From assembly GCA_001724245.1 (NCBI GenBank), contig MEDX01000023.1, positions 1-45,053 of the forward strand: a DNA stretch of 45,053 nt, read 5' to 3'. This DNA is from Fonticula-like sp. SCN 57-25. Taxonomy: Eukaryota. The translations under genes were made by a program, and so were the position numbers. A model generated the notes under the pieces. It was not told the origin of the DNA. It did no database searches and saw nothing but the letters and a program-made list of their open reading frames with translations. Positions 1 through 8,545 of the stretch are shown here, piece after piece; within the stretch, counting starts at the first letter, position 1; every line of letters begins with the position of its first letter.

Positions 1-1226
1 TAAAGAGCGCACGTTTCCGAGGTTGAGGGCGTTGCAGCCGTACGCGAGCTGGTCGGCGTGCGACACCTTGATAATGTTGTAGTTATTCTCCTCTGCATAC
101 CTTGAAAACTCGACGTCTCCCCTCGCCTTGACGTACGACTTTGTGGTCTTATCGCGCACGTACTCGTCGACGAGGCGCCTGTGCGGGCTGTCCTCGCCGA
201 TCATGTCCTCGTACATGAGGCAGAGGTTCGTCCCGAGGATGTTGAAGACGCAGTCGAGGTGCATGCGGTCCTGGTCCTTTTCAAAGTCGTCGCGGACGAC
301 CGCCACGCGGCGCGTCCCAAAAAGGTCATTGTCCATCATGTACTGCACGGCCTCCATGTTGGAGCGCAGGCCAATGCCGATGAAGCAGAGGTCGGGGCCA
401 GCGGGGAAGTAGTCGCCGCCTTCGAGCCGCCCAGGCTCGGGGATCTCGCCCGCAATCGTGAAACCGAGCTTGCGGAAGCAGAATTTGGTCAGATCGACCT
501 CGTTCTGACGCTGCGCCGAGCTGAGCCGCCCAAAGACAATGCCCTTGCGCGTCGTGATCTGCTGATCGCGCATGAAGACGAGGTTGCTGAGCGGCTTGAA
601 GGCATAGGACGCCGTAAAGTGAGTGTCGCGGTCCGACGGCTCAAGCGTCACCGTGGGGTTTGTCATGATAATGTCGAGCAGCTGCTCGGGCGACATGGCC
701 TCAACGACAACGCGCTTGTAGGTGTCGGTGAGGTAGTAAGAGTCCTTCTCGGACAGCTGCGACGCATCGCGATCAAGCGCGTAGTGGAGGCAGCGCATCG
801 CGTACTCCTCAAGGGCAACGCGCGCACCGACATTCGTGTCAGTGTCCATCAAAAGGATCTCGCGGAGATCAAGCACGCGGACGCCTGGACATCATCGGTG
901 AGCACACTACAAGAATAAATGCGGCACGAACCATAGTCCTCGAGGACCTTGCGAAAGTTGTTGTGCTGCTCCAGGACCAGCCGGAGGTTAATAGGCTTCT
1001 CATAAAGCGCACCGGCGGGGTGCATGCTCCCCATCAGCTTGCCGAGGCCGGGCTTGGACAGGATGACAAAGTTGGCCGGGTCGTCCTCATGATCCTGCGT
1101 GGTGGACAGGGGAAAGTTGCCATGCGCAGAGCGCACATAGTCGGGGGAAAGCTCGTAGACGAGCGTCGCAGTGCTTGCACTGGACACAAGGCGGCCCTTG
1201 TTCGCTACGCGAGATGCCTCAGACAT
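1..1226 (-). CDS. Arginine deiminase (eukaryotic type), 3' end beyond window
   Basis: Exon 1 (ATG 1226) joins across a 47-nt GT-AG intron (885-931) to a long frame absent from the ORF track: GVRVLDLREIL...NLVFMRDQQ...GRLEGGDYF...GIGLRSN...DRMHLDCVFN...QLAYGCNALNLG. FxRD, LEGGD and MHLD are ADI/amidinotransferase-fold active-site motifs. The catalytic Cys would lie outside the window. Confidence 0.88.
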
Positions 1227-1370: not shown

Positions 1371-2906
1371 ATGGCGGCGTACCCGAGGACGCTCCAGCTC
1401 TTCCTAGGGGCCGTGGCCACGGCGGCCGAGGACGAGGACGGTAAGCGCTTGGCGTCGCTCATGCATCTCTTTCCGGTTCCGCGCGAGAGAGCGGAATGGC
1501 TCCGGAAGGCGCGATCGGTACGAACTTGCGCCCGGCCCGCCGCCACTGACAACCGCGTAGGCGGACCTCGAGGAGGCGATCAGCAGGCGGCTGGACGCTC
1601 CGTTTGACGAGATGGTGTATGCATTCCTTCAGACGGCGCAGTTGCTAGAGTCGGGGCAGCTGAGCGCGGCGTTTCAGCTGCAAGTCACCTATTGCAAATA
1701 TCCGCTCATCCTCGTATATTACCGTTGTGTCCGTGTGTGTTGCGTTATTTGGTGGATCACTGCTTTATTTCATACTTTATTGCATGCGTTTTGTTCCTTG
1801 ACTTGGTCGTACTATGATGCTAGGAAGCATGGGCGAGTGGGAGCGGTGGTGCGTTCCGCTGATCTGCACGGCGACGGCAGACCTCAGGCAGGTCGCCGCT
1901 CTGGCTGACAAGGCCGCTGGCACAAACGAGTGTCTCAACGACACCTCGCGTATTGTTCTAAAGTTTTTTAATATCTGCGCAACGGATCGGTGCGTTTTGG
2001 TGCATGCTTTCCTATGCGCTTACCCGGTGTGCGCAGTGCCCCGCTTGAGACATCGAAAAAGTGGGGGACGCTTTACATTGCCAACGTTGCCTTTCGCATT
2101 TTCTATTTTGTGCGGAGTCGAATAATTGTTTTCGTTCTGCTTACTTTTTTCACAGCTCAAACAACCGCGCATGCTTCCGAGCATATTCCGCGTTTTGAAC
2201 CTTCCCGGCTTCCCGCTGCTCGAGTTCCCGCAGTCGCAGATTGTGACGCTAAAGTACTACTCGGGGCTCACGTCCTTTTACGAAGAGCAATACGAAAAGG
2301 CGCACGAGGATTTCATGTATGCCTTCCAGCACTGCCCTCGCAACGCCATTAAGAACAAGAGGTATGCAACCGATTGCATACTTAATTCCTGTTCTAATGT
2401 GCATTTAGGACGCTGCTGCTATACTTGATACCCACGCGCCTTATTATCGGGCGCTCAATGTCAAAGGGGCTTCTTCGCAAGTACAACATGAACATATATA
2501 CGGCCATCATGCAGTGTGTCCGCCAGGGCAACCTCGGCGGCCTCCGCGCAGCCGTCGAGAGCCGTCGGGACACATTCGCGCGCCTGCGCTTGTTGCTCGC
2601 CATGGAGCGAATCGAGCTCAATTGCATTCGGTCGCTGCTGCGCAAGACGCATGTGCTGACGGGCACGGCGGCGCGCCTGCCTTTGGCCAATGTGAGCACG
2701 GCGTTCGCCGTCGCGGGCGAGCAGCTGGGCGACGAAGAAGTTGAGGCAATTGTTGCGCGTTTGATTGACATGGTGCGCATTAAAATGGTGCTATTGTAAT
2801 GCTGACTATGTGGCAGGGTTGGGTCCGAGGATATATTGCAAAGGAGAAGCAGCTGATCGTGCTCAGTCAAGCAAACCCCTTTCCCGGTGCCGTCAACCCT
2901 CTGTAA
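1371..2906 (+). CDS. PCID2: PCI domain-containing protein 2 (Thp1/Csn12-like, TREX-2 subunit)
   Basis: Seven exons give ...FFNICATDRAPLETSKKWGTLYIAN...FPQSQIVTLKYYSG...AFQHCPRNAIKNKR...EVEAIVARLIDMGWVRGYIAKEKQLIVLSQANPFP*, a typical PCID2 pattern. Intron 2 is AT-AC. Confidence 0.92.
1698..1812 (+). other. U12-type (minor spliceosome) AT-AC intron in PCID2
   Basis: 5' end ATATCCGC; U12 branch sequence TTCCTTGAC at 1794-1802; 3' AC at 1811-1812. Removal joins TGC AA|T ATG in frame. Confidence 0.9.
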
Positions 2907-8214: not shown

Positions 8215-8545
8215 AAAGGGCGCATAATACTAGATAGCTCGACCAACGCGTGGGTCGCTTTTATCGATAGTTTTACATCAAGTTTACCCAGAATATTTTA
8301 ATACTGCCGGCAGATACTATGCTTGTGCAGCAAACAGAACCATAATAATAGATAGCATTTTCCATCACTTTCCATGCGTAAAGCACGGTGGCCCTTACTG
8401 AGCGCAACAAGCTGCGGTGCTCTTTGTATTGCGTAAACAAGACGCACATTGTGCGCGCGCGGCCGCCGCCCGACCGCAATGATCCGCCTTGATCAGTGTC
8501 AATATGGTGTGTCAGCAAAGCGATTTGTGACCGGCCACCCACCGG

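Follow-up and report, generated by a model that had tools for sequence, protein, structure and literature searches.

In the 45,053-nucleotide (nt) stretch of DNA analysed here (the window: positions 1 to 45,053 of the forward strand of contig MEDX01000023.1, assembly GCA_001724245.1 of Fonticula-like sp. SCN 57-25), the PCID2 gene contains an AT-AC intron of the U12 type whose 5' splice site (donor) departs from the minor-spliceosome consensus RTATCCTT. The same departure is present in every minor intron that we defined in this genome, and it complements the U6atac small nuclear RNA (snRNA) encoded there, a variant of the CC type. We consider it likely, on the strength of these sequence comparisons, that minor donors have shifted genome-wide from RTATCCTT to RTATCCGCTCATAC, parallel adaptation to the CC-type U6atac having come at the expense of pairing with U11. 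The splice signals, the snRNA sequences and the complementarity between them, with its statistics, are direct observations and are described first.

The minor-intron donor across the genome

Searches of the assembly (9.5 Mb in 749 contigs) defined 17 minor introns, 13 AT-AC and four GT-AG, all of which begin with RTATCCG(C/T)TC. The RTATCC core, including C+6, and G+7 are invariant (17/17), and C+8 is found in 16. The first-pass annotation of the window had proposed that the organism tolerates GC at +7/+8; this combination is instead the rule of the genome. In all 17 introns the branch adenosine lies 10-15 nt from the intron end and the frames are open on both sides. Intron lengths range from 90 to 275 nt with a median of 121 nt, against 43-47 nt for the U2-type introns of PCID2.

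A match was accepted as a minor intron when its ends matched, its body was T-rich, a branch site was present and the frames stayed open over the junction. The pattern RTATCCGCTC gave 51 matches (28 in the control), all of which were inspected; 16 were accepted and 35 were left out of the intron set, among them the match on contig C12, with a GC-rich body, and the one on contig C479, with short frames and AT-AG ends only. The seventeenth intron, on contig C32 with the donor ATATCCGTTC, was found with patterns that leave +7 onward free or fix +7 only. When only RTATCC and CCTTRAC were fixed, 83 matches were obtained (24 in the control), 13 of them with GCTC at +7 to +10; for 30 of the 83 the complete region was retrieved, roughly a dozen others were covered by separate searches and the rest were judged on their first 80 nt. 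Thirteen of the 17 introns were recovered with +7 onward unconstrained and the four longest by the pattern fixing +7 only. Minor introns longer than 400 nt or with weaker branch sites would escape these searches.

Searches for other kinds of minor donor were negative. A canonical RTATCYTT donor combined with a branch site and intron end gave 17 matches (16 in the control), all of which were fetched and none of which was intron-like. Searching from the branch site, we found no minor intron with another donor in 20 fetched regions and seven earlier loci, 100 of the 128 matches being listed. Similarly, a one-mismatch donor search returned 20 matches, and none of the seven new ones was a minor intron. 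All five exact copies of TATCCGCTCATAC in the genome are minor-intron donors.

The bodies of the 17 introns are not homologous, sharing only T-rich low-complexity matches of 12-48 nt; thus, the introns came by their common donor through change or retention in parallel rather than through copying. Pfam names the flanks of 10 of the 16 introns scanned, some below cut-off: UTP23, SUI1 (eIF1), KTI12, syndetin, PP2C, GNAT, CUE, FATC, EF-hand and MMR_HSR1 (GTPase). Putative labels for host genes include NAA10, OLA1, tomosyn/LLGL, WDR11 and GPR137. The WDR11-like intron appears, from table coordinates, to lie far away from the minor intron of human WDR11, and we do not claim homology between them. 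A metagenome scan for the donor, branch site and AC returned eight loci and no second lineage: seven, with no spliced frame or intron-like body, were set aside as chance, and the eighth (L163) repeats the ARID-gene intron of L061. A short GTACGC...AG intron on contig C201 (L232:1492-1546, near 8404-8458 of the contig) has CTATCCGCTCATAT 8 nt past its start, which may be what is left of a minor donor in an intron that became major, or may be a chance match.

Minor spliceosomal RNAs and their predicted pairing with the donor

Rfam profile searches gave one match each over the cut-off for U12 (69.3 bits), U6atac (72.8 bits), U11 (63.6 bits) and U4atac (58.1 bits), and an orthologue of SNRNP48 is found on contig C30, its C-terminal match alone being weak (E-value 0.1). 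These genes agree with the first-pass view that the organism keeps the minor spliceosome. U6atac carries GCCGA at nt 12-16, where the Rfam consensus has AAGGA, and thus falls under the [GU]CCGA definition of the CC variant; nt 1-11 match the consensus. It is the single full U6atac among 45 scored candidates, the second match being a 27-nt chance match. Its pairing with U4atac and U12 is kept through complementary changes, with predicted duplex energies of -47.4 and -12.4 kcal/mol, respectively. The catalytic triad of U6atac (L002:1501-1622) is GGC, where the Rfam consensus has AGC, and its helix Ia reads AUGGUU; we take this form to be plant-type. U12 (L001:1501-1652) bears the complementary bases. 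U11 is canonical and keeps AAAAGGG, hence +7/+8 of the donors are unpaired with it. For U11 the scoring covered 40 of 462 candidates, and the one gene found is intact, with a promoter element and an Sm site. Relative to the Rfam model this U11 (L004:1501-1693) has GC-rich insertions of 15 nt in stem-loop 1 and about 50 nt in stem-loop 2.

The register of the donor-U6atac helix was taken from human cells, where U6atac GG14/15CC is reported to suppress a CC5/6GG donor (PMC4980772). In this register the donors complement U6atac nt 6-16 at ten of eleven positions (+4, +5 and +7 to +14), the exception being C+6, which faces C14. Positions +11 to +14 were part of none of the intron-defining patterns, yet they follow U6atac: A+11 and T+12 are each found in 14 of the 17 introns, A+13 in nine and C+14 in ten (p = 8e-10, 3e-3, 2e-4 and 9e-5, respectively, against intron-body composition). 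Among the 35 non-intron RTATCCGCTC matches the corresponding counts are 12, 14, 3 and 6. With U6atac the donors reach a mean predicted duplex energy of -11.2 kcal/mol, compared with -4.7 kcal/mol for U11; the textbook donor would reach -2.3 kcal/mol with the U6atac of this genome. Two donor deviations, G+11 on contig C160 and T+8 on contig C32, are G-U wobbles. Of the two RNAs in which the first-pass annotation had suggested seeking compensatory changes, U6atac complements the donor, whereas U11 remains canonical and mismatched at +7/+8.

The element TCCCACAATT lies about 63-70 nt upstream of the U11, U12, U4atac, U6atac and U6 genes, the last of which (L112:1501-1613, contig C748) retains the canonical ACAGAGA box. 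It also stands upstream of U3, RNase P and a U13-like RNA, and at seven more loci (L177, L179, L181, L182, L184, L189 and L190), most of them with a second TGAC-like box. Behind the element, the seven loci have GC-rich sequence that looks structured and matches no Rfam family, starting from about position 1560 (about 245 in L184 and 580 in L189); they probably encode small RNAs. On contig C531, a gene at L168:1501-1665 encodes a tandem pair of CHHC zinc fingers and has a long tail of low complexity; it is presumably GTSF1-like.

The PCID2 intron and its surroundings

The minor intron of PCID2 (intron 2, 115 nt, phase 2) occupies 1698..1812 on the plus strand. It reads ATATCCGC from 1698, with the donor ATATCCGCTCATCC at 1698..1711, and continues to the canonical U12 branch site TTCCTTGAC at 1794..1802 (branch A at 1801), followed by 8 nt and the 3' splice site AC at 1811..1812, 12 nt counted from the branch A. 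TTCCTTRAC is present in a single copy in the window, both strands searched. The full signature (ATATCC, 30-300 nt, TTCCTTRAC, 7-11 nt, AC) also occurs once, and in none of 300 dinucleotide shuffles, in keeping with the AT-AC minor intron with a variant donor first proposed for this position. The donor is complementary to nt 16, 15, 13-8 and 6 of U6atac, with mismatches at +6 and +13, and is mismatched with U11 at +7/+8; the branch site pairs with the genome's own U12 with one bulged base (-8.6 kcal/mol). The intron thus has the RTATCC core, TTCCTTRAC near the 3' end and the matched AT-AC termini of the U12 type, and it lacks one mark of that type, the TT at +7/+8 that pairs with U11. On these signals, 1698-1812 is classified as a U12-type AT-AC intron, predicted to be removed by the minor spliceosome.

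In a hand-built model, PCID2 occupies 1371..2906 on the plus strand and consists of seven exons (1371-1517, 1561-1697, 1813-1989, 2037-2109, 2156-2361, 2409-2772 and 2817-2906). Excision of the minor intron together with five U2-type GT-AG introns at 1518..1560 (intron 1, 43 nt), 1990..2036 (intron 3, 47 nt), 2110..2155 (intron 4, 46 nt), 2362..2408 (intron 5, 47 nt) and 2773..2816 (intron 6, 44 nt), all on the plus strand, yields a frame of 397 amino acid residues, so that the proposed restoration of the PCID2 frame holds, as does the estimate that this intron is about 2.5 times as long as its neighbours. Four of the five major donors have C at +4. Exon 6 matches human PCID2 (E-value 5e-10). 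We scored alternative in-frame junctions (GT-AG, GC-AG and AT-AC/AG/AA) with a hidden Markov model built from 68 full-length homologues of 380-460 residues drawn from the 150 matches of a HMMER search; a word-indexed search had found no long homologues. Among 231 alternatives the junction 1697^1813 ranked first with 362.5 bits, the best GT-AG alternative scoring 359.4 bits. An AT-AC minor intron with the exon end CCA is listed for mouse Pcid2 and tabulated there as mouse-only (PMC6717393 supplement). As judged from this table row, the exon end fits a phase-2 position shared with the intron described here, and the Asn codon that the latter splits aligns with the Gln of human IVQSF.

Standard gene finders may plausibly mis-annotate this gene, as the first-pass annotation proposed. 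The public protein records P0121 and P0271 are single-exon fragments, which probably stem from intron-blind callers. Head-to-head with PCID2 lies an arginine deiminase gene (window 1-1226, minus strand; Pfam ADI, E-value 9e-40), the two start codons being 145 nt apart. NDUFS1, which adjoins PCID2, has its best named match in Fonticula alba (69%, against 57-62% for named fungi) and groups with F. alba in a rapidly built tree that included 33 of its 120 matches and no holozoan outgroup (Shimodaira-Hasegawa-like approximate likelihood ratio test, 99). Best named matches of eIF1 are Nuclearia and F. alba. From these sequences we take the organism to be a nucleariid with F. alba as its nearest named relative; nucleariids are the sister group of fungi.

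Mechanism, alternatives and known systems

U11 and U12 are described as recognising the donor and branch site jointly, with short U11 pairing and contacts of SNRNP48 to the first donor bases, before U6atac replaces U11 (PMC3584512; bioRxiv 2023.12.22.573053). In the scheme that we propose, U12 would bind the canonical branch site and, together with proteins, recruit the intron, while U11, aided by SNRNP48, would grip the donor only at about +4 to +6 (and +9), a hold that would explain the invariant C+6. The CC-type U6atac would then replace U11 through a long helix that fixes the donor, with nt 16 on +4, nt 15 on +5, C14 unpaired opposite C+6, and nt 13-6 on +7 to +14. Such pairing probably occurs in the cell and these junctions are probably used. 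The CC variant [GU]CCGA has been described in Trichoplax, cnidarians, Reniera, Acanthamoeba, Physarum, Physcomitrella and oomycetes (Davila Lopez 2008, PMC2396436). Because the CC type is so widespread in species with canonical donors, it was probably the introns that moved towards a pre-existing CC-type U6atac.

Several observations weigh against this explanation. Beyond +14 the match ends (+15 to +18 agree with U6atac in 1, 5, 4 and 4 of the 17 introns), C+6 is invariant although it faces C14, and no intron-like donor with G+6 was seen among 63 matches, of which 30 were fetched. The C32 intron pairs weakly with U6atac (-4.8 kcal/mol). For PCID2, the minor junction leads by a small margin in protein score, about 2.5-3 bits, so the splice signals weigh more than that score. 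Ten host-gene names are absent from the human/mouse minor-gene table. The Rfam search did not find U1, which we read as a sign of an incomplete assembly, or one from which collapsed genes are missing, rather than as absence of U1; a second U11 may thus lie outside the assembly. Finally, the CC-type U6atac coexists with RTATCCTT introns in the other species described, so the long helix is not generally required; Physarum, with a CC-type U6atac, is reported to have 3,648 donors that fit the canonical consensus perfectly (bioRxiv 2020.10.12.336362).

Among the alternatives, co-evolution of the donors with a variant U11, whose 5' end would be complementary to GCTCAT and whose gene would lie outside this assembly, survives best, although we regard it as unlikely; the U6atac match would then be secondary or shared. 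Such snRNA genes can evidently be missing here, as neither the Rfam search for U1 nor inspection downstream of 24 exact copies of TCCCACAATT revealed U1, U2, U4 or U5 (the latter search covering all four), and U1 is reported to co-evolve with major donors in Entamoeba and Mastigamoeba (bioRxiv 2022.06.08.495308). However, the sole U11 found among the 40 of 462 candidates scored is intact and canonical, and the match extends to +14 over nt 6-13 of U6atac, its interruption falling precisely on the known C14. Less likely still is that the extended donor is read by a protein, such as an altered SNRNP48, ZMAT5 or B-complex factor, and that the likeness to U6atac is coincidental. In U11 just four nucleotides are free, the site has proteins on its flanks (bioRxiv 2023.12.22.573053), and U6atac leaves C+6 unexplained; yet +7 to +14 are eight consecutive positions of Watson-Crick complement in a genetically set register, and the deviations on C160 and C32 preserve pairing as wobbles.

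We find it very improbable that the PCID2 stretch is spliced as a nearby U2-type GT-AG intron or that its motifs are chance: the in-frame alternatives score only about 3 bits lower, but they lack a GTRCG-like donor, in 16 further genes the 14-nt donor is again accompanied by a branch site and matched ends, the shuffles lack the signature, and the table entry for the mouse Pcid2 intron is compatible with phase 2 at the aligned Gln. Descent of the common donor from one mobile, introner-like element, or an origin of the snRNA contigs from another organism in a mixed bin, is just as improbable: the tetranucleotide match is low at the C32 locus (r 0.56), but the intron bodies share nothing beyond T-rich sequence, the snRNA contigs fit the window profile (r 0.80-0.93, against 0.85-0.90 for pieces of the window itself), the window's short-intron motif occurs at 0.8-1.6 per kb on three of the five snRNA contigs (0 on those of U12 and U11), and NDUFS1 and eIF1 both indicate nucleariids.

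The proposed adaptation of the donors to the CC-type U6atac would set this genome apart from known systems. It shares with the canonical U12 system the RTATCC start, TTCCTTRAC 10-15 nt from the intron end, the AT-AC and GT-AG subtypes, the four snRNAs and SNRNP48; it differs in having GCTCATAC at +7 to +14 instead of TT(T), in the loss of U11 pairing at +7/+8 and in a U6atac complementarity that reaches +14. Species with the CC variant have the same GCCGA box, and pairing with U4atac and U12 is retained here; those described so far splice RTATCCTT introns, unlike this genome, and the poor pairing of Acanthamoeba and Phytophthora introns with their CC-type U6atac was called "difficult to explain" (PMC2396436). 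In Physarum polycephalum a core minor splice signal has likewise changed genome-wide to complement a minor snRNA, but there the branch site (TTTGA) changed with U12, RTATCYTT donors were kept and minor introns number in the thousands (bioRxiv 2020.10.12.336362), whereas the present genome has an altered donor with U6atac as its partner, a canonical branch site and about 17 minor introns found. The donor consensus also tracks an snRNA in Entamoeba and Mastigamoeba, through U1 (bioRxiv 2022.06.08.495308), and U6-driven donor shifts in yeasts indicate that a second-stage snRNA can shape donor evolution (PMC10581693); these cases concern the major spliceosome, and here the first-stage reader U11 is unchanged. 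Minor introns several-fold longer than major ones are reported from compact-intron insects of a different lineage (189 vs 65 bp in D. busckii, PMC10639083), the absolute sizes being shorter here (median 121 vs about 45 nt).

No earlier report of this donor was found in the literature searched, coverage of which excluded subscription journals and some supplements and species tables; the accessible text of PMC11347168 and PMC10639083 contains no such donor, and the main text of the latter does not mention Fonticula. The same literature yielded no account of a minor spliceosome in Fonticula or Parvularia. On balance, we lean towards a previously undescribed, recoded dialect of minor introns, in which every donor would have independently left U11 for an extended helix with the CC-type U6atac.

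The minor donor is held to be nearly invariant, and catalogues of minor introns score against RTATCCTT. A genome with RTATCCGCTCATAC in all defined minor introns demonstrates that this signal is open to change, and such screens could miss it. Since 2008 the CC-type U6atac has been puzzling, as it failed to pair with the introns examined; in this genome ten of eleven positions are complementary, and the system allows a direct test of whether donor choice can be governed by U6atac alone. The findings also place a minor spliceosome in a compact genome within the sister group of fungi. If the proposed explanation is correct, this organism would provide natural evidence that U6atac, rather than U11, can set the minor donor consensus, the puzzle of the CC variant would be answered, and some reported losses of minor introns would be dialects overlooked by canonical scoring.
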